DNA of 64,000 nucleotides, taken from NCBI RefSeq assembly GCF_051903065.1, contig NZ_CP178438.1; one strand, 5' to 3'. A program made the position numbers and the translations under genes. This DNA comes from Escherichia coli (lineage in GTDB: Bacteria > Pseudomonadota > Gammaproteobacteria > Enterobacterales > Enterobacteriaceae). The notes under the pieces were generated by a model. It made no database searches. It was not told the DNA's origin and worked only from the letters and a program-made list of their open reading frames with translations. Positions 4,596 through 64,000 of the stretch are shown here, in pieces (position 1 is the stretch's first letter; every line of letters starts with the position of its first letter).

Positions 4596-5957
<1,362 letters not shown>

Positions 5958-5977
<20 letters not shown>

Positions 5978-7007
5978 AATCACCTGTTGTGTTGATAAGT
6001 TCCCTGACAACGCTGGTTGCAAAACTACCCGCCGGAAGCCAGAAACGGATCTCTACGGTGACGTCATCCCACCAGTTCCAGCTTAATTGTTGCGGATACA
6101 GCAGCATCGCTCTGCGCGCGGCTTCAACTTTTTCGCGCACCAGTAAGGTTTGTAATTCAGTTTCTGCGGCGACCGCTGCTTGTTCGAATGCCAACGCTTC
6201 ACGCTGAGTTCCCCATTCGCCACTGCCCGGCAATGCGGCGGTTATCATCAGCTCTTTATCGTTGACGCGACGCTGTAATTCCGCCAGTTCTTCGGTGGTT
6301 GCTACAAACCAGCTACCACGTCCGGCTAATTGTAGCGCATCGCCGTCAACAACTTGATTAACGTCTGCTTTTTTGAGGCGCTCAGCAACAATCTGATTAA
6401 ACAACGCACTGCGGGCTGCCGACAACCAAAAACTCCGTTTATTGCGATCGCGCACCGGAGTATTGGTTTGCGCCCAGCGCAGCGCGCCCTGCAAGTTGCT
6501 ACCGCCAATCCCAAAACGTTGGGCACCGAAGTAGTTCGGTACACCTTTTACGCAAATATCGATCAGACGTTGTTCAACGTCATCGCGATTGCTCACTTCG
6601 CGCAGAACCAGGGTAAAGGCGTTACCTTTCAGCGCCCCTAAACGCAGCTTGCGCTTGTGCCGCGCATACTCCAGCACTTGGCAGCCTTCCAATTGAAAGG
6701 CGCTCAGATCGGGCATTTCCTTGCCCGGCACGCGAGCACATAACCACTGTTCCGTTACAGCATGTTTGTCTTTTTGCCCAGCGAAGCTGACTTCACGGGC
6801 ATGAATTTTCAGGAATTTCGCCAGTGCATCCGCCACAAAACGGGTATTGCAGCCGTTTTTGAGGATTCTAACCAGAATATGCTCACCTTCACCATCAGGC
6901 TCAAAGCCCAAATCTTCCACCACCACAAAGTCTTCCGGATTGGCTTTCAGCAGCCCGGTGCCTTGCGGTTTACCGTGGAGGTAAGTGAGATTATCAAACT
7001 CAATCAT
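5958..7007 (-). CDS. truD: tRNA pseudouridine13 synthase TruD
   Basis: 349-aa [21 protein letters not shown]...; 3' end overlaps surE start. Confidence 0.95.
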
Positions 7008-7483
7008 TTTGTTGCCTTAATGAGTAGCGCCACCGCTTCACAGGCTATCCCTTCCCCACGTCCGGTAAATCCAAGTTTTTCCGTAGTAGTGGCTTTCACG
7101 TTAACATCATCCATATGGCAGCCGAGATCTTCGGCAATAAACACGCGCATTTGTGGAATGTGCGGCAACATCTTCGGTGCCTGAGCGATGATAGTGACAT
7201 CGACGTTGCCAAGGGTATAACCCTTCGCCTGAATACGACGCCAGGCTTCGCGTAGCAGCTCGCGGCTATCGGCACCTTTAAATGCCGGATCGGTATCCGG
7301 GAACAGCTTGCCGATATCCCCCAGCGCCGCCGCGCCAAGCAATGCATCGGTCAACGCATGGAGCGCCACGTCGCCATCAGAATGCGCCAGCAATCCTTTT
7401 TCGTAAGGAATGCGTACGCCACCAATGATAATTGGGCCTTCACCGCCAAAGGCGTGTACGTCAAAACCGTGTCCAATTCGCAT
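7004..7483 (-). CDS. ispF: 2-C-methyl-D-erythritol 2,4-cyclodiphosphate synthase
   Basis: 159-aa [15 protein letters not shown]... Confidence 0.97.
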
Positions 7484-8193
7484 TATGTATTCTCCTGATG
7501 GATGGTTCGGGTGAGGTAAAACTCGGCCAGTGCCAAATCCTCCGGGCGCGTGACTTTAATGTTATCCGCACGGCCTTCGACCAACTGAGGATGGAATCCG
7601 CAATATTCCAGCGCCGAGGCTTCGTCGGTAATAGTCGCGCCTTCATTTAGAGCGCGCGTCAGACAGTCATGTAACAGCTCACGAGGGAAAAATTGCGGCG
7701 TCAGCGCGTGCCATAAGCCGTTGCGATCAACGGTATGAGCAATGGCATTTTTGCCCGGTTCGGCACGTTTCATAGTATCGCGCACTGGTGCTGCTAGGAT
7801 CCCTCCCGTGCGGCTGGTTTCGCTCAACGCCAACAATCGCGCGAGGTCATCCTGATGCAGACAAGGACGAGCGGCGTCATGCACCAATACCCACTGCGCG
7901 TCGCCAGCGGCTTTCAAACCTGCCAGCACGGAATCGGCACGCTCATCACCGCCATCTACAACGGTGATTTGCGGATGATTCGCCAGAGGAAGTTGTGCAA
8001 AACGGCTATCGCCAGGACTTATGGCAATGACGACACGTTTCACCCGGGGATGCGCCAGCAGCGCATGCACCGAGTGTTCAAGAATGGTTTGATTACCGAT
8101 TGAGAGATATTGCTTAGGACATTCCGTTTGCATTCGACGGCCAAATCCGGCCGCCGGAACCACGGCGCAAACATCCAAATGAGTGGTTGCCAT
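7483..8193 (-). CDS. ispD: 2-C-methyl-D-erythritol 4-phosphate cytidylyltransferase
   Basis: 236-aa ORF with [11 protein letters not shown] motif; stop overlaps ispF start. Confidence 0.97.
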
Positions 8194-13402: not shown

Positions 13403-13858
13403 CGGTTTATCCCCGCTGGCGCGGGGAACACGTGTGGCACTCTGCGTCTGGTATTAAATCATTCGGTTTATCCCCGCTGGCGCGGGGAACACCCGCCACG
13501 CCGTGCGCATCAACAGATATACGCAGGTTTATCCCCGCTGGCGCGGGGAACACAAACCGAAACACACGATCAATCCGAATATGAGCGGTTTATCCCCGCT
13601 GGCGCGGGGAACACCGAAAAGGCACCGTGCCGGTGACGTTCAATTCCGGTTTATCCCCGCTGGCGCGGGGAACACCGTTTTCACTCACTGGCAATCTCCG
13701 AGCAGAGCGGTTTATCCCCGCTGGCGCGGGGAACACGTGCGAATACCGTGTAAAAAATTAGTGTTATTCGGTTTATCCCCGCTGGCGCGGGGAACACTCA
13801 CGGTAGCGCCACTGCGCGTCGGTGACGGGCGGTTTATCCCCGCTGGCGCGGGGAACAC
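13403..13858 (-). CRISPR. CRISPR array 1 (type I-E): 8 repeats, 7 spacers of 32 nt
   Basis: 29-bp repeat CGGTTTATCCCCGCTGGCGCGGGGAACAC at 13403, 13464, 13525, 13586, 13647, 13708, 13769, 13830 (61-bp period). Third repeat starts with A. AT-rich leader on the high-coordinate side, so transcription is on the minus strand. Confidence 0.97.
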
Positions 13859-20115: not shown

Positions 20116-20144
20116 CTGTTCCCCGCGTCAGCGGGGATAAGCCC
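20116..20144 (+). repeat. Solitary degenerate CRISPR-repeat-like element in the cas3-cse1 intergenic region
   Basis: cTGTTCCCCGCGtCAGCGGGGATAAgCCc is 24/29 identical to the crRNA-sense repeat GAGTTCCCCGCGCCAGCGGGGATAAACCG. Stem CCCCGC/GCGGGG is intact. crRNA sense is on the plus strand, opposite to the cas genes and to both arrays. Confidence 0.75.
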
Positions 20145-23061: not shown

Positions 23062-23214
23062 CTACTTCTTCGATTCGTAAGCGAGAACAGCCTTAAACTC
23101 CATACCACGTTCTCTGATACTCAACTCACACAACGAGTCACCTACCATCAGCGTGAATCCCAGTACTGTACAACACAGTACGATGATTGCCACAAGGGCA
23201 TATTTTGTCAGCAT
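23062..23214 (-). CDS. Hok/Gef-family type I toxin (HokE-like small membrane peptide)
   Basis: 50-codon ORF not in the track (below size cutoff): [50 protein letters not shown]. Hok signature (TM helix, SLCE, AYE) and a GGGAGG Shine-Dalgarno 7 nt upstream. Location matches the known hokX/sokX locus between cysH and cas3. Confidence 0.75.
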
Positions 23215-23478
23215 GTCTTGCCTCCCTGCAAAGAAGAGACTAACATTCGAATTGCTTAGGTTCGAACGCTGGCCTCAGGTTGATAGAAATATCGCCTGGG
23301 GCTTTTGTCCATCTGGAACCTCGCGAATGCTTAACGCCAGACAGCCTCAAGCACCCAACACCATTCTATACCTGTTAATTCTTCCAGCGGCGTTCACGTT
23401 TAAAATCAGGAATGCTGCTCGCAAAATAAAAACGCCCCCATCATTTCTGACAGAGGCGTTTAATTTATCCGGCAATAT

Positions 23479-39319: not shown

Positions 39320-39458
39320 TGGTTATCCCCGCTGGCGCGGGGAACATAAGTTCGACAACTTAAAAAATGATAACAAGTCCGGTTTATCCCCGCTGATGCA
39401 GGGAACATAATAAAAACTTTAACTAGTTCGGTTTATCCCTGTTTTTACAAGGAATATT
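39320..39458 (-). CRISPR. Decayed CRISPR remnant: three degenerate type I-E repeats with irregular spacing
   Basis: tGGTT-ATCCCCGCTGGCGCGGGGAACAT (39320-39347), CGGTTTATCCCCGCTGATGCAGGGAACAT (39380-39408), CGGTTTATCCCTGTTTTTACAAGGAATAT (39430-39458); intervening segments 32 and 21 nt. Confidence 0.8.
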
Positions 39459-39519: not shown

Positions 39520-40576
39520 GGCTTTGTTGAATAAATCGAACTTTTGCTGAGTTGAAGGATCAGATCACGTATCTTCCCGACAACGCAGACCGTTCCGTGG
39601 CAAAGCAAAAGTTCAAAATCACCAACTGGCCCACCTACAATAAAGCCCTCATCAACCGTGGCTCCATAACTTTCTGGCTGGATGATGAAGCTATTCAGGC
39701 CTGGTATGAGTCAGCAACACCTTCTTCACGAGGCAGACCTCAGCGCTATTCTGACCTTGCCATCACGACTGTGCTGGTCATTAAACGCGTATTCAGGCTG
39801 ACCCTGCGCGCTGCGCAGGGCTTTATTGATTCCATTTTTTCTCTGATGAACGTTCCGCTACGCTGCCCGGATTACAGCTGTGTCAGCAGGCGGGCAAAGT
39901 CGGTTAATGTCAGTTTCAAAACGCCCACCCGGGGTGAAATCGCACACCTGGTAATTGATTCCACCGGGCTGAAGGTCTTCGGTGAAGGCGAGTGGAAAGT
40001 CAAAAAGCATGGCCAGGAACGCCGCCGTATCTGGCGTAAGCTGCATCTCGCCGTTGACAGTAAAACACATGAAATCATCTGCGCTGACCTGTCGCTGAAC
40101 AACGTTACGGACTCAGAGGCCTTCCCCGGGTTAATCCGGCAAACCCACCGGAAAATCAGGTCAGCCGCCGCCGATGGCGCTTACGATACCCGGCTATGTC
40201 ACGATGAACTGCGGCGTAAGAAAATCAGCGCGCTTATCCCTCCCCGAAAAGGTGCGGGTTACTGGCCCGGTGAATATGCAGACCGTAACCGTGCAGTGGC
40301 TAATCAGCGAATGACCGGGAGTAATGCGCGGTGGAAATGGACAACAGATTACAACCGTCGCTCGATAGCGGAAACGGCGATGTACCGGGTAAAACAGCTG
40401 TTCGGGGGTTCACTGACACTGCGTGACTACGATGGTCAGGTTGCAGAGGCTATGGCCCTGGTACGAGCGCTGAACAAAATGACGAAAGCAGGTATGCCTG
40501 AAAGCGTGCGTATTGCCTGAAAACACAACCCGCTACGGGGGAGACTTACCCGAAATCTGATTTATTCAACAAAGCC
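39520..40576 (+). mobile_element. IS903-family (IS5 superfamily) insertion sequence, 1057 bp, intact, with 9-bp target site duplication
   Basis: 18-bp terminal inverted repeats GGCTTTGTTGAATAAATC at 39520-39537 and (reverse complement) 40559-40576. Direct repeat ATTTTCACT at 39511-39519 and 40577-40585. One transposase ORF spans the element. Confidence 0.93.
39597..40520 (+). CDS. IS903-family DDE transposase
   Basis: Open frame from 39552 (TTG) in the track; likely start GTG 39597, giving ~307 aa. Start assignment is uncertain. Confidence 0.85.
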   Translation: MAKQKFKITNWPTYNKALINRGSITFWLDDEAIQAWYESATPSSRGRPQRYSDLAITTVLVIKRVFRLTLRAAQGFIDSIFSLMNVPLRCPDYSCVSRRAKSVNVSFKTPTRGEIAHLVIDSTGLKVFGEGEWKVKKHGQERRRIWRKLHLAVDSKTHEIICADLSLNNVTDSEAFPGLIRQTHRKIRSAAADGAYDTRLCHDELRRKKISALIPPRKGAGYWPGEYADRNRAVANQRMTGSNARWKWTTDYNRRSIAETAMYRVKQLFGGSLTLRDYDGQVAEAMALVRALNKMTKAGMPESVRIA

Positions 40577-40976
40577 ATTTTCACTTAAAGTATGAACAGG
40601 ATATCTTTATTCATAAGAACTATTCATCAACAGCGTATAGAGGCGGTTATGTAAAACCACTCATTAGCCTCAAAACAAAGACAAATTTCCAGATTTATTA
40701 CTTAATCAATGAATAACAAGCTTAAAAAATACACTGTTATTCTAAAGAAAAAATTAACAGGCATTAATTAATATTAAAAAAATAATATATTAAAATTTCT
40801 TAACGGTTTAAGGATTATACAAATAACACTTTGATTAAATTTGATTTTTTGTATCGATAATTGTGAACTTATCTGGCATGGGGAACTATTTTGAACATGA
40901 GGTGTTACGTGGATATGTTGCTTATTACAAGTACAGCTAATATAAAAACTTGAGAAAGAGATAACGGGTTATATGG

Positions 40977-41554
40977 TGGTTTATCCCCGCTGGCGCGGGG
41001 AACTCGTACTGACGGATAAAAATAATACCTTTTGCGGCGGTTTATCCCCGCTGGCGCGGGGAACTCGTCAACGTTTTTCATGTGGGCATGAGTTGGGGCG
41101 GTTTATCCCCGCTGGCGCGGGGAACTCTATTCGGCCTCGTGCTGGTCGTGACAAAATACCGGTTTATCCCCGCTAGCGCGGGGAACTCTGGCGATATTGC
41201 CTACCGCAACAAAGAAAATACGGTTTATCCCCGCTAGCGCGGGGAACTCATCCACGAATCCAGTGCAAATGAGTTTGTTGGCGGTTTATCCCCGCTAGCG
41301 CGGGGAACTCATTGTGACTACCACCGATAACCCCGCAACCACCGGTTTATCCCCGCTAGCGCGGGGAACTCCTGCATTCGCCTGCGGTTATCAGATCGCT
41401 AAACGGTTTATCCCCGCTAGCGCGGGGAACTCGCTGCCATTACTTCCCGCCAGCGTTGCTCTGGCGGTTTATCCCCGCTAGCGCGGGGAACTCGCAGAGA
41501 ATCGTTCGATTGCCCCTACATCTTCCGGTTTATCCCCGCTGGCGCGGGGAACTC
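40977..41554 (-). CRISPR. CRISPR array 2 (type I-E): 10 repeats, 9 spacers of 32 nt
   Basis: 29-bp repeat CGGTTTATCCCCGCTGGCGCGGGGAACTC at 40977, 41038, 41099, 41160, 41221, 41282, 41343, 41404, 41465, 41526. Repeats 4-9 have CTAGCGC instead of CTGGCGC; repeat 1 starts with T. Leader on the high-coordinate side. Confidence 0.97.
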
Positions 41555-54781: not shown

Positions 54782-57538
54782 ATGACCAACTACAGCCTGC
54801 GCGCACGCATGATGATTCTGATCCTGGCACCGACCGTCCTTATTGGTTTATTGCTGAGTATCTTTTTCGTCGTGCATCGCTATAACGACTTGCAGCGTCA
54901 ACTGGAAGATGCCGGTGCCAGCATTATTGAGCCGCTTGCAGTTTCTACTGAATATGGCATGAGCCTGCAAAATCGCGAATCTATCGGTCAGTTAATAAGC
55001 GTACTGCATCGTCGCCATTCCGATATTGTTCGCGCGATTTCGGTTTATGATGAAAATAACCGGCTCTTTGTCACCTCCAATTTTCATCTTGATCCCTCAT
55101 CAATGCAGCTCGGCAGCAACGTGCCGTTTCCTCGCCAGCTCACTGTCACTCGTGACGGCGATATTATGATCCTCCGCACGCCGATTATTTCTGAGAGTTA
55201 CTCCCCCGACGAATCGCCCAGTAGCGATGCCAAAAATAGTCAAAATATGCTGGGATATATTGCGCTGGAGCTGGATCTTAAATCGGTTCGCTTGCAGCAA
55301 TATAAAGAGATCTTTATTTCCAGCGTGATGATGCTGTTTTGTATCGGCATTGCGCTTATTTTTGGCTGGCGCTTAATGCGCGATGTAACCGGTCCGATTC
55401 GCAACATGGTGAATACCGTCGACCGCATCCGTCGCGGGCAACTCGACAGCCGGGTGGAAGGATTTATGCTCGGCGAGCTGGATATGCTGAAAAACGGTAT
55501 CAACTCGATGGCAATGTCGCTGGCTGCTTATCACGAAGAGATGCAGCACAATATCGACCAGGCGACGTCCGATCTGCGTGAAACGCTGGAGCAGATGGAA
55601 ATTCAGAACGTTGAGTTGGATCTGGCGAAAAAGCGCGCCCAGGAAGCGGCGCGTATTAAATCCGAGTTTCTGGCAAATATGTCACACGAGCTGCGTACAC
55701 CACTGAATGGTGTTATTGGCTTTACCCGCCTGACGCTGAAAACAGAATTAACACCAACGCAGCGCGATCACCTGAATACGATTGAACGTTCGGCAAATAA
55801 TTTGCTGGCAATTATTAATGATGTTCTCGACTTCTCGAAACTGGAAGCAGGTAAGCTGATTCTGGAAAGTATTCCATTCCCACTACGCAGCACACTGGAT
55901 GAAGTCGTTACTCTGCTGGCACATTCTTCTCACGATAAAGGGTTGGAATTGACGCTCAATATTAAAAGCGACGTGCCTGATAACGTGATCGGCGACCCAC
56001 TGCGATTACAGCAAATCATCACTAACCTGGTGGGGAATGCAATTAAATTCACCGAGAATGGCAACATTGATATTCTGGTAGAAAAACGTGCGCTGAGTAA
56101 TACCAAAGTGCAGATTGAAGTGCAGATTCGGGATACCGGCATTGGTATTCCTGAACGCGATCAATCGCGCTTATTCCAGGCCTTCCGACAGGCTGATGCC
56201 AGTATTTCCCGCCGTCATGGTGGCACCGGGCTGGGGCTGGTGATTACACAAAAACTGGTTAATGAAATGGGCGGCGATATTTCGTTCCATAGCCAGCCGA
56301 ATCGCGGTTCAACTTTCTGGTTCCACATTAATCTCGATCTGAACCCGAACATTATTATTGAAGGGCCATCCACCCAGTGCCTCGCCGGTAAACGCCTGGC
56401 CTATGTCGAACCAAACTCCGCAGCAGCGCAATGCACGCTGGATATTTTAAGTGAAACGCCGCTGGAAGTGGTTTATAGCCCAACGTTCTCCGCGCTGCCT
56501 CCCGCGCATTACGACATGATGTTGTTAGGCATCGCGGTGACCTTCCGCGAGCCGTTAACAATGCAACATGAGCGATTAGCGAAAGCGGTATCGATGACCG
56601 ATTTCCTGATGCTGGCACTTCCTTGCCATGCACAAGTCAATGCTGAAAAACTCAAGCAAGATGGTATCGGCGCGTGTCTGCTGAAACCATTAACACCTAC
56701 GCGCCTGCTGCCTGCCCTGACGGAATTTTGTCATCACAAACAAAACACGCTTTTGCCTGTAACCGATGAAAGTAAGCTGGCAATGACAGTCATGGCGGTT
56801 GATGACAACCCCGCTAACCTGAAACTTATCGGCGCATTGCTGGAAGATATGGTGCAACATGTGGAACTTTGCGATAGCGGGCATCAGGCGGTTGAACGGG
56901 CGAAACAGATGCCGTTCGATTTGATCTTAATGGATATTCAAATGCCTGACATGGATGGCATTCGGGCCTGCGAGCTCATCCACCAGCTCCCCCATCAGCA
57001 ACAAACGCCGGTTATCGCGGTAACGGCGCATGCAATGGCCGGGCAAAAAGAGAAGCTGCTTGGCGCAGGGATGAGCGATTATCTGGCGAAACCGATTGAA
57101 GAAGAGCGATTGCATAATTTGTTGTTGCGCTACAAGCCTGGCAGCGGTATTTCGTCTCGCGTCGTGACGCCCGAAGTCAACGAAATTGTGGTGAACCCGA
57201 ATGCGACCCTCGACTGGCAACTGGCACTACGCCAGGCAGCAGGAAAAACCGATTTAGCGCGCGATATGCTGCAAATGTTACTCGATTTCCTGCCTGAAGT
57301 TCGCAACAAAGTTGAGGAACAGCTGGTTGGAGAAAACCCGGAAGGCCTGGTTGATTTGATTCATAAACTGCATGGCAGTTGCGGCTATAGCGGTGTGCCG
57401 CGTATGAAGAATCTCTGCCAACTGATCGAACAACAGCTACGTAGCGGTACTAAAGAAGAAGATTTGGAGCCGGAGCTGCTGGAACTGTTGGACGAGATGG
57501 ATAATGTCGCGCGCGAAGCCAGCAAAATTCTCGGGTAA
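54782..57538 (+). CDS. barA: Hybrid sensor histidine kinase BarA
   Basis: 918-aa ORF with TM/HAMP, HisKA H-box (SHELRTPLN), HATPase, receiver and HPt domains. Confidence 0.97.
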
Positions 57539-59131: not shown

Positions 59132-60472
59132 TCAATGACGGCCGAAAACGGGACGTTTACGGTCAAAGGTCCAGCCGGGGATCAGGTACTGCATCGGGCC
59201 TGCGTCGTTACGCGCACCGCCAGGCAGACGTTTATAGGCCTCATGTGCCTTTTGTACCTGTTCCCAGTCCAGTTCCACGCCCAGACCGGGCGCATCAGGA
59301 ACGGCAATTTTTCCGTTTTTAATCTCCAGCGGATTTTGGGTCAGGCGACAATCGCCCTCCTGCCAAATCCAGTGGGTATCGATAGCGGTAGGATTACCCG
59401 GTGCCGCCGCGCCCACATGGGTAAACATCGCCAGAGAGATATCGAAATGGTTGTTGGAATGGCAGCCCCAGGTCAGCCCCCAGTCGTCGCAAAGCTGCGC
59501 CACGCGGACTGCACCGGAAAGCGTCCAGAAGTGCGGATCGGCAAGTGGAATATCTACCGCATTGAGCATCACCGCATGGCCCATTTCGCGCCAGTTGGTG
59601 GCGATCATATTAGTCGCGACGGGCAAGCCGGTCGCCCGCCGAAACTCCGCCATCACTTCACGTCCGGAGAAGCCCTGTTCTGCGCCGCATGGATCTTCGG
59701 CATAGGTAAGAACATCATTCAGCCCTTTGCATAAAGAAATGGCTTCATCAAGCAGCCAGGCACCGTTGGGATCAACGGTAATCCGCGCATCCGGGAAGCT
59801 TTTCTTCAATGCACGAACAGTGTCGATTTCTTGCTCGCCAGGTAACACGCCGCCCTTAAGTTTGAAATCTTTAAAGCCATAGCGATCCTGTGAGGCTTCC
59901 GCCAGACGCACAACGGCTTCGCTGTTCATCGCTTTCTGATGTCGCAACTGATACCACTCATGGTTGCCCGGCGTATTTTCCAGATAAGGAAGATCGGTTT
60001 TAGTCCGATCACCGATATAAAACAGATAACCGAGGACGGTGATAGCATCGCGTTGCTTGCCTGGCCCTAACAGTTCGCAGACCGGAACATTCAGCGCCTT
60101 ACCTAGCAGGTCAAGCAAGGCGGCTTCCAGCGCCGCCACGGCGTTAACGCGCAATTCAAAGGTCCAGGCCCCTTTACCGAAGGTATCAAAATCGGCGGCC
60201 TGATTACCTTTATGCACCTGCTGAACCACTTTATTCAGGCGCGCAACTTCCTGGCCCAGCACCATCGGAATAGCTTCGACCAGTGTTTGATAAATCACCT
60301 CTCCGCCCGGCGCTTCACCAATGCCGGTATGCCCGGCATTATCGGTGAGTACCACGATATTGCGGGTGAAGTATGCGTTATGCGCACCACCAATATTGAG
60401 CAACATGCTGTCATGTCCGGCGACCGGAATGACTTTCATATCAGTAATAACAGGACTGGATTGTGTCGTCAT
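59132..60472 (-). CDS. gudX: Glucarate dehydratase-related protein (enolase superfamily paralog)
   Basis: 446-aa [34 protein letters not shown]..., paralogous to gudD. Confidence 0.93.
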
Positions 60473-60473
60473 C

Positions 60474-61826
60474 TTATTGCCCCGCGACAGGTTTCAGCTC
60501 GATACGCTTGATATCGCCCACCAGCACCAGGTAGCTCAGTACCGCGATTAAGGCATGAACACCAACATAAATCAGCGCCCCATTAAAGGAGCCAGTCGTG
60601 CCAACGATATAACCAATTGCGATTGGCGTGACGATGCCAGAAATGTTACCGAACATGTTGAACAGGCCACCGGAAAGACCGCTGATCTCTTTTGGCGCGG
60701 TATCTGCCATTACTGCCCAACCCAGCGCCCCAATGCCCTTACCGAAGAAGGCCAGCGCCATAAAGCCGATGATCATCCACTCAACGTTGACGTAGTTGCA
60801 GAACACCATCACCATCGACAGCAACATGCCCATTACGATCGGTGTTTTACGCGCAATGTTCAGCGATCCCGTGCGGCGCATCAGCCAGTCGGAAATAATC
60901 CCACCCAGCACACCGCCGATAAAACCGCAAACCGCCGGAACGGAAGCCACAAAGCCCGCTTTCAGAATCGACATCCCACGCGCCTGCACCAGATAAACCG
61001 GAAACCAGGTAATGAAAAAGTAAGTCAGGGCGTTGATACAGTACTGACCGATATAAACGCCGATCATCATCCGTGACCCGAGCAGCTGTTTGATCTGCCC
61101 CCACTTCACGCTGAACGGCACTTTAACTTTGGTGTTTTGCTGATCCATATTGATCAGCGCGCCACCCGCGGCGATGTACTCCAGCTCTTTCTGATTTACC
61201 CCCGGATGTTGATTTGGCTCGTGGATGACTTTCAACCAGATAAAGCTGATGACAATCCCCAGACCGCCCATAAAGAAGAAGACGTGTGACCAGCCCACTT
61301 CATGCGTCAGCCAGCCCATAATCGGCGCGAAGATCACCGTTGCGAAGTATTGAGCGGAGTTAAAAATCGACACCGCCGTTCCCCTTTCCTGCGCCGGAAA
61401 CCAGGCCGCAACAATGCGACTGTTGCCGGGGAAAGATGGCGCTTCAGCAAGCCCGACCAGGAAGCGCAGCGTAAACAGGGCAACGATAATGCCGAATCCA
61501 CTAAAGATATCGACGAAGCCTTGCAGCAAGGTAAACATCGACCAGATAAAGATCGACCAGAAGTAGACGCGTTTTGAACCAAAACGATCCAGCAACCAAC
61601 CACCAGGGATCTGCCCGATAACATAAGCCCATGAGAAGGCAGAGAACACATAACCCATTCCCACGGGATCAAGGCCGATATCTTTGGCCATTTCCGAACC
61701 GGCAATAGAAAGCGTAGCGCGGTCGCCGTAGTTGAAGGATGTGACGATAAACAACATCACCACTATCCAGTAACGAGCATTCGTGCGTTTTTCCACACTG
61801 CTCGCAGCCTGACTTAAAGAACTCAT
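60474..61826 (-). CDS. gudP: Glucarate/galactarate MFS transporter
   Basis: 450-aa polytopic ORF. Confidence 0.93.
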
Positions 61827-62260
61827 TGTTGCACTCCTGAAAATTCGCGTTAGCCACGCTCACTCTGGACTGCGACATCGCCAGGAAATCAGAGGTGACG
61901 TAGGGTGTTTTTTGCCGTTTTTATAGGTTGTTCGCCGAATACGGCGCGTGTTTATATCTGGCAATAGCAGTATAAAAAGCGCGCCATAGCGGCTCACCGT
62001 GCAACAACACAACATTAATGCGTTCAATGAGGCCCGATTTTGGCATTAGCCCTGGACGGTGGAATCCACTTCACGGAAATGAAAACAAGAACAAGAAAGG
62101 AAGGGTTAAAACGAAGAAATAAAGAAGAGTATGAAATGGATCGCTTGACTCCAGGCAAACGCCAGTAAAAATCCGCGCTATGAAGCAGTTTTTACTGGCA
62201 TTTGCCTGAAAAGATTCGATTCAGCACCGCTAAAACGACATTTACCGCTCGCTGAACATA

Positions 62261-62710
62261 TCAGGACAACAGCGTGCCCCACTGTTCGACCCACGGATTT
62301 GATTCCGTTTCCGGTTCCGGGTTCTCACTGGCGTCAATCAACAGCATTTCGCCAACCCGCTGAGCGCTCTGTTCCTGCAACAAGGCATCGAACTGTTTGC
62401 CGCCATTGCAGAAATTCACATAACTACTGTCGCCGAGCGCAATCACGCCATAACGCAGATTCGGCTGGAAGCCCAGACTATCTTTGATTCCCTGAAAGAG
62501 CGGCACAATGCTATCAGGAAGGTCGCCCTGCCCGGTCGTGGACGTAACCACCAGAACATACTTATCCTGATAGGGCAGCCAGTCGCTTAATTCAGGATCT
62601 TCAAATACCGTTGCTTTGTGGCCCTGTGCGGTCAGAATTGCTTCTGCTTCTTCCGCCACTAACAGCGAATTTCCGTACATGGTGCCGACAAAAATACCAA
62701 TTTCCGCCAT
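62261..62710 (-). CDS. yqcA: Flavodoxin-like protein YqcA
   Basis: 149-aa [26 protein letters not shown]... Confidence 0.9.
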
Positions 62711-62727
62711 ACCGTTTTCTCCCTGGA

Positions 62728-63510
62728 TTAGGAACTTATCTCTCCATCCTGACCTGATGGCGCACTGAACTCAACCCTTTCATTTTCAGGAAGCAGACCG
62801 CGCCAGCCAAATTGTGATAACGCCTGCATCCAGGTGTCGTCCAGGCCCGCGTGAATAGTCAGCGGCTCGCCAGTAAAAGGATGCGTCAATGACAACTGAC
62901 TGGCATGCAGCATTAACCGCTGAAGACCAAAATGCTCAGCACCGCTGCGATTCTGGCGTAAATCGCCATGTTTGCTATCGCCAATAATCGGATGACGCAA
63001 ATGGGCAAGATGTCGGCGAAGCTGATGTTTGCGTCCGGTTTTCGGCTCCAGTTCCACCAGGCCGTAGCGCGTGGTCGGGTAACGTCCGGTCGCTACCGGC
63101 ATTTCTACGGTCGCCAGACCGCGATAATGCGTCACTGCTGGCTGCGGGCCTTTATCTTCGCGGGCAAATTTATCAGCGATTTTGTCCAGTTCTTCCACCA
63201 GTGGATAATCCAGCACCGCTTCTTCCATCAACCAGCCGCGCACAATCGCATGGTAACGTTTCTGGATTTGGTGCTGTTCAAACTGTTGTGCCAGCAGCCG
63301 TCCGGCCTCGCTGGATAATCCCATCAACAACACACCAGAAGTTGGTCGGTCCAGACGATGAGCAGTAAAAACATGCTGTCCTATCTGGTCACGCACGGTT
63401 TGCATGACCACTACTTTCTCGTCGCGATCCAGCCAGCTGCGGTGAACCAGCCAGCCGGAGGGTTTATTTACCGCAACCAGCCATTCATCCTGATAGAGTA
63501 TTTCCAGCAT
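62728..63510 (-). CDS. truC: tRNA pseudouridine65 synthase
   Basis: 260-aa ORF with RluA-family motif ([12 protein letters not shown]). Confidence 0.93.
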
Positions 63511-63839
63511 TAGCTCGCATCATCCGCAAAAAGAGCATCCAGTTTTTCCAACTCAGCCAGAATAAGCGCGCGTTGCGGATGGTCCGTCGCCAGCGCCATT
63601 TCATAATAGGGAGCAACGGCAAAAGCGCCCGGTAACGGCTGGTTGTTATTTAACAAATCGTGCATTCGCGGGATCAGCACCCACTGCAACCACTCCAGTG
63701 GTTCCATGGTGTCCATAAAGAACGGTTGGGTACTATTAAATTGATGCGGCTGGGGTACATCGTTTCGCCAGTGCTGATGTTCACGCAGTAACGCTTCAAG
63801 CGCCTGCAACTGGAGACGAACGCGGTCATGAGTGGTCAT
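63510..63839 (-). CDS. yqcC: DUF446-family protein YqcC
   Basis: 109-aa ORF; stop overlaps truC start. Confidence 0.85.
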   Translation of the reverse strand: MTTHDRVRLQLQALEALLREHQHWRNDVPQPHQFNSTQPFFMDTMEPLEWLQWVLIPRMHDLLNNNQPLPGAFAVAPYYEMALATDHPQRALILAELEKLDALFADDAS

Positions 63840-63882
63840 AAAGCAACCTCAATAAGAAAAACTGCCGCGAAGGATAGCAGGA

Positions 63883-64000
63883 ATAAAAAAAGGGAGCACT
63901 GTATTCACAGTGCTCCCGGTTCGTTTCGCAGCATTCCAGCTACATTTGTTGCTCCCTGCTCATCCTTGACAACTTTTCCTCTGGCCTTGCGGCCAATCGT
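63883..64000 (-). ncRNA. csrB: 3' portion of the CsrA-sequestering sRNA CsrB (continues beyond window end)
   Basis: Minus strand reads ...CAAGGATGAGCAGGGAGCAACAAATGTAGCTGGAATGCTGCGAAACGAACC followed by terminator GGGAGCACTGTGAATACAGTGCTCCC + T-run; GGA-containing motifs and the expected position next to yqcC. Confidence 0.8.

Follow-up and report, generated by a model that had tools for sequence, protein, structure and literature searches.

The 3′ third of csrB, including the decay-control module of the RNA, at the edge of a 64,000-nucleotide Escherichia coli window

csrB is among the best-studied bacterial small RNA (sRNA) genes. barA codes for a sensor kinase that works with a partner, UvrY, the activator of csrB transcription. 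BarA-UvrY activates csrB via an 18-nt inverted repeat centered at about position −183 (PMC4682653), and the E. coli CsrB RNA has 22 GGA triplets (PMC5027483). The segment from +263 to +369, which carries four single-stranded GGA motifs plus one in the terminator, is sufficient for CsrD-dependent decay and is the minimal RNA for RNase E-initiated decay (Vakulskas et al. 2016, PMC5027483). Within it, RNase E must first cleave in unstructured RNA immediately before the terminator, the major in vitro cuts being at A327 and A331; this cut is blocked when CsrA occupies GGA sites 20 and 21, a protection which CsrD overrides (PMC5027483). In the K-12 MG1655 chromosome the gene is annotated as a 369-nt ncRNA (csrB, b4408; NC_000913.3, positions 2924156 to 2924524, minus strand) and lies in the gap between yqcC and syd.

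The DNA analyzed here, referred to as the window, is a 64,000-nucleotide stretch of an E. coli genome (contig NZ_CP178438.1, assembly GCF_051903065.1). A cmscan search of the window alone matched positions 63882 to 64000, on the minus strand, to the Rfam CsrB family (RF00018) with 135.7 bits, the gathering score of the family being 71 bits. The E value was 1e-37 to 1e-36 in a permissive Rfam scan of positions 60000 to 64000 and in a whole-window scan at the gathering threshold. The match spans model positions 238 to 356 of 356, with a posterior probability of about 1.0 across all 119 nt, and was flagged by the program as cut at the 5′ end of the RNA, that is, at the window edge. The minus-strand sequence of these last 119 bases, ACGAUUGGCCGCAAGGCCAGAGGAAAAGUUGUCAAGGAUGAGCAGGGAGCAACAAAUGUAGCUGGAAUGCUGCGAAACGAACCGGGAGCACUGUGAAUACAGUGCUCCCUUUUUUUAUU, matches exactly the 3′ end of the complete gene in the E. 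coli chromosome NZ_AP045789.1, and K-12 b4408 is syntenic with it. The piece corresponds to nucleotides 251 to 369 of the 369-nt sRNA, or 32% of the gene (window coordinate = 64251 minus RNA nucleotide). We are thus almost certain that the window ends within the chromosomal csrB gene of E. coli, a GGA-rich sponge for CsrA, and that the 3′ third left inside is the decay-control module of the RNA. The basis of the identification is homology and not the density of motifs. A preliminary description made from the letters of the window had placed the 3′ end and terminator of csrB here, on the minus strand, and in this it was right; its starting coordinate, 63883, was accurate to within one base, the 3′ end annotated in K-12 and given by Rfam being 63882. 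The locus is the canonical E. coli one, and the finding, although correct, is an ordinary and already known one.

Read from the window edge in the 5′-to-3′ direction of the RNA, the fragment begins with a GGCC-GCAA-GGCC hairpin at positions 63983 to 63994 (minus strand, as all the RNA features that follow; RNA nucleotides 257 to 268), which lacks a GGA, is present in both the minimum free energy (MFE) and centroid folds, and is absent from the Rfam consensus structure. GGA site 18 follows at positions 63977 to 63979 (nucleotides 272 to 274, context AGAGGAAAA) and is single stranded in the MFE fold; the site numbers used here come from the count of 22 GGA triplets and agree with those of PMC5027483. 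Site 19 (63963 to 63965) occupies the loop of a small hairpin, UCAAGGAUGA, at 63960 to 63969 (nucleotides 282 to 291) in the Rfam consensus structure. Site 20, located by motif position at 63953 to 63955 (nucleotides 296 to 298, context GCAGGGAGCA), is one of the two sites assigned a protective function in PMC5027483. The other, site 21 (63935 to 63937), sits in the loop of the hairpin GUAGC-UGGAAU-GCUGC at 63928 to 63943 (nucleotides 308 to 323), found in both the Rfam consensus structure and the MFE fold and in agreement with the published stem (308 to 310) and loop (316 to 318) positions (PMC5027483). Of the hairpins with a GGA in the loop, the window therefore holds these two, at 63969 to 63960 and 63943 to 63928, where “one or two” had been anticipated.

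Immediately 3′ of the site 21 hairpin lies GAAACGAACC, at positions 63918 to 63927 (nucleotides 324 to 333), which neither the Rfam consensus nor the MFE fold shows as paired and which corresponds to the “necessary cleavage site” of RNase E, according to the cleavage positions in PMC5027483. A327 (window position 63924) and A331 (63920) are both A here, and the segment is identical to that of K-12. It abuts the intrinsic terminator hairpin at 63892 to 63917 (nucleotides 334 to 359), identified by a terminator scan and in the Rfam structure, with an 11-bp stem that includes the 22nd GGA (63914 to 63916). The RNA ends with a U7 tract plus AUU at 63882 to 63891 (nucleotides 360 to 369), as in the annotated 3′ end of K-12 csrB. 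The terminator scan, a consensus scan independent of the Rfam search, returned, on the minus strand from 63917 to 63885, an 11-bp stem with seven GC pairs followed by U7, so the fragment has the 3′ Rho-independent terminator expected of a CsrB RNA. The permissive scan also gave a plus-strand CsrB match at 63851 to 63917, which at 22.6 bits falls below the 71-bit gathering score; we reject it as a by-product of the palindrome in the terminator, since on that strand the stem is followed by GGTTCGTTTC and not by a T-run. Matches to snoR21, P31, IRES_Tobamo, and Plastid-ycf2 in the 60000 to 64000 interval scored far under the respective gathering thresholds (E values of 1 to 7) and were taken as due to chance.

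The 119-nt piece therefore contains five GGA triplets, starting at nucleotides 272, 286, 296, 314, and 335; two are in hairpin loops, two are single stranded (nucleotides 272 and 296), and the terminator stem holds the fifth (nucleotide 335). With loop positions counted as single stranded, this gives the four plus one published for the +263-to-+369 segment. The abundance of GGA motifs typical of the family, mostly in loops or single-stranded stretches, is apparent in the full RNA, with 22 triplets versus 12.3 expected (P of about 0.001), among them nine CAGGA[UAC]G motifs. Enrichment in the 119-nt piece taken alone was not significant (5 versus 3.1 expected, P of about 0.16). Its predicted folding energy, −47.8 kcal/mol, was lower than that of all 200 shuffled sequences (z = −4.8). 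In sum, the window keeps the decay-control module and loses most of the sponge body, with 17 of the 22 GGA sites.

What lies past position 64000 can be read from genomes that share the end of the window. Three complete E. coli chromosomes match the last 1,301 bases at 100% identity, and 5,425 of 5,426 complete genomes carry them at ≥95%. In one of the three, NZ_AP045789.1, gudX-gudP-yqcA-truC-yqcC are followed by a 621-bp gap without any annotated feature and then by syd-queF-ppnN; the order gudP-yqcA-truC-yqcC-gap-syd-queF is common to this chromosome and K-12. A cmscan search of the yqcC-syd gap of NZ_AP045789.1 found a full-length CsrB with 384 bits (E = 1.6e-113, model positions 1 to 356), so both the truncated piece and the complete gene of the identical-tail genome score above the 71 bits of the family threshold. 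In both NZ_AP045789.1 and K-12, csrB lies between yqcC and syd with yqcC on the same strand; relative to the window, syd is past the edge. Inside the window the synteny yqcA-truC-yqcC-csrB-syd is fixed by the downstream neighbor yqcC (DUF446), an open reading frame at 63510 to 63839 on the minus strand supported by Pfam (PF04287, E = 2.6e-34) and by the annotations. Upstream of csrB in NZ_AP045789.1, the UvrY inverted repeat TGTGAGAGATCTCTTACA is found as an exact match (positions 4741 to 4724 of the extracted locus L001, minus strand), about 173 to 190 nt upstream of the +1 equivalent, and TGTAGGAGA begins 5 bp after it, as in PMC4682653. The promoter repeat through which BarA-UvrY acts is thus seen in the identical-tail genome, outside the window. 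That the body and promoter of the gene lie beyond coordinate 64000 had been proposed from the window, along with a rightward extension and a covariance-model search as the means of checking it; the extension yielded the complete CsrB with its promoter repeat, and the search was positive both on the window alone and on the extended sequence.

The other 250 nt of the gene, and its promoter, are probably intact in the window's own genome, judging from its near-identical relatives. The reading that has to be weighed against this is that csrB is interrupted or deleted just past the edge, for example by an insertion sequence (IS), and is therefore a pseudogene. Disrupted alleles do exist: a query comprising csrB plus its promoter was recovered in one piece in 5,403 of 5,425 genomes and was split or partly covered in about 22, and in the one such example examined, E. 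coli MARGA_3 (NZ_CM170101.1, locus L005, 3804 to 5381), an IS3-family transposase lies within csrB at about RNA nucleotide 94. The window's genome also bears mobile IS copies, as indicated by the DDE transposase at 39552 to 40520. Such disruption nevertheless has a base rate of only about 0.4%, and the three tail-identical genomes have no interruption in the region covered, the one extended being intact, which makes a pseudogene very improbable here.

Even less probable is that the fragment belongs to another Csr/Rsm sponge, of the CsrC or RsmX/Y/Z type, instead of CsrB. Because GGA-loop hairpins and a terminator are common to all RNAs of Rfam clan CL00106, a short piece from the 3′ end might in principle fit more than one of them. 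Three results exclude this reading: the best family within the clan was CsrB, at 135.7 bits (cmscan keeps the best match per clan), only 2 of the 119 positions depart from K-12 csrB, and the fragment sits in the csrB-specific yqcC-syd interval; neither a higher-scoring match to another CL00106 family nor a location outside yqcC-syd was observed. The possibility that the window merely ends in a generic Rho-independent terminator with chance GGA triplets, with no sRNA gene at all, would agree with the nonsignificant GGA count of the 119-nt piece and with the weak plus-strand match (22.6 bits) that the palindromic terminator produces. It is the most remote of the three and is refuted by the E value of 1e-37, which extends over all 119 nt, only about 35 of them terminator, by the full-length CsrB found on extension, and by near-identity to the curated K-12 csrB.

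With the fragment read as csrB, its RNA would be expected to behave as described for K-12. CsrA binding and sequestration, and decay dependent on RNase E and CsrD, are attributed to this strain's RNA on the grounds that it differs from K-12 CsrB at 3 of 369 nucleotides. In the proposed scheme, BarA-UvrY would drive transcription of csrB from the promoter and inverted repeat past the window edge, and the GGA motifs of the RNA, in loops or single stranded, would bind CsrA dimers and keep CsrA off its mRNA targets. CsrA on sites 20 and 21 would keep RNase E away from the unstructured stretch that precedes the terminator until CsrD, activated by unphosphorylated EIIA-Glc, overrides this protection, and decay after RNase E entry would run 3′ to 5′. 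The barA gene itself lies in the same window, at about 54782 to 57538 (plus strand, by colinearity with positions 4782 to 7538 of the extracted locus L004), only about 6.3 kb from csrB; rpoS, relA, and mazEF are likewise within the window.

The 3′ end of csrB is separated from the ATG of yqcC (position 63839) by only 42 nt (window positions 63840 to 63881), the two genes being on the same strand, and a simple sigma-70 scan found no promoter-like site on either strand between positions 63300 and 64000. Because of this short gap and the lack of a sigma-70-like site in the scan, the origin of yqcC-truC-yqcA transcription is not obvious. Part of it could conceivably be due to transcripts that run on through the csrB terminator or that start at a promoter within the csrB body, which would couple the operon to BarA-UvrY, with modulation by the G340A substitution described below, although we consider this unlikely. 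If it were true, a tRNA pseudouridine synthase operon would be coupled to BarA-UvrY signaling, and the tightening of the terminator by G340A would modulate the coupling.

The preliminary description had also expected annotation pipelines working on the window alone to miss the gene. This did not hold, as the truncated-hit mode of Infernal scores the piece at nearly twice the gathering threshold. Covariance-model searches recover sRNA genes cut at a contig or window edge, so pipelines built on Infernal give no grounds for the concern over truncation. csrB does often go unannotated, but not on account of truncation. The PGAP-annotated RefSeq E. coli records among the matches listed (H1 to H22) have no feature over csrB, and the full-length, 384-bit csrB of NZ_AP045789.1 (locus L001, 4141 to 4761) is present without a PGAP feature; among the records compared, only the curated K-12 record names the gene. 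Users of the inspected PGAP feature tables will hence not see csrB, even where it is complete.

Elsewhere in the window, two type I-E CRISPR arrays were located by pattern search on the plus strand, at 13404 to 13856 and 40978 to 41552, with 8 and 10 repeats, respectively, spaced 61 bp apart; between them, according to the annotation of a near-identical genome, lies a complete cas3-casABCDE-cas1-cas2 locus. Two solitary degenerate CRISPR repeats are present at 20118 to 20143 (minus strand) and 39320 to 39345 (plus strand). Between cas3 and cysH there is a chromosomal hok/sok-type toxin-antitoxin module (23199 to 23356 and 23062 to 23214, both minus strand), in which an Rfam match to the sok antitoxin RNA (111.7 bits versus a gathering score of 59) overlaps a 50-amino-acid open reading frame of the Hok/Gef family (PF01848, E = 5.7e-10). 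About 1.1 kb of the window, at about 39520 to 40650, is missing from the otherwise 99.9%-identical NZ_AP045789.1. This extra segment includes an open reading frame at 39552 to 40520 (plus strand) for a 322-amino-acid DDE transposase (PF13737 plus PF01609) and is therefore an IS element; it sits just upstream of the second CRISPR array, in the interval that separates this array from ygcE.

The gene as completed from the identical-tail genome shares with K-12 csrB the yqcC-csrB-syd locus, the 369-nt length, the 22 GGA triplets, the terminator, and the upstream UvrY inverted repeat, with 366 of 369 nucleotides identical. Two of the three substitutions in the full RNA fall within the window (2 of 119 positions). 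Nucleotide 307, directly 5′ of the site 21 stem, is U where K-12 has A, and at nucleotide 340 an A replaces the G of K-12, so that a G-U pair of the terminator stem becomes A-U. The in-window allele was found with no more than one mismatch in 1,426 of 5,425 genomes, indicating that it is a common natural allele. The +263-to-+369 segment of Vakulskas et al. (2016, PMC5027483), with sites 18 to 21, A327/A331, and the terminator, is wholly contained in the window fragment (nucleotides 251 to 369), so that all of the sequence sufficient for CsrD-dependent decay is inside the window. The cleavage site and GGA sites 18 to 21 are identical in sequence to those of K-12; the fragment differs from the published segment in beginning 12 nt further 5′, at nucleotide 251, and in bearing A307U and G340A. 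The other sponges of clan CL00106, CsrC of E. coli and RsmY/RsmZ of Pseudomonas, operate on the same principle, with many GGA motifs titrating CsrA/RsmA, and their transcription is likewise activated by BarA-UvrY or GacS-GacA. They nonetheless belong to other sequence families and occupy other loci, and the best score of the fragment within the clan is that of CsrB.
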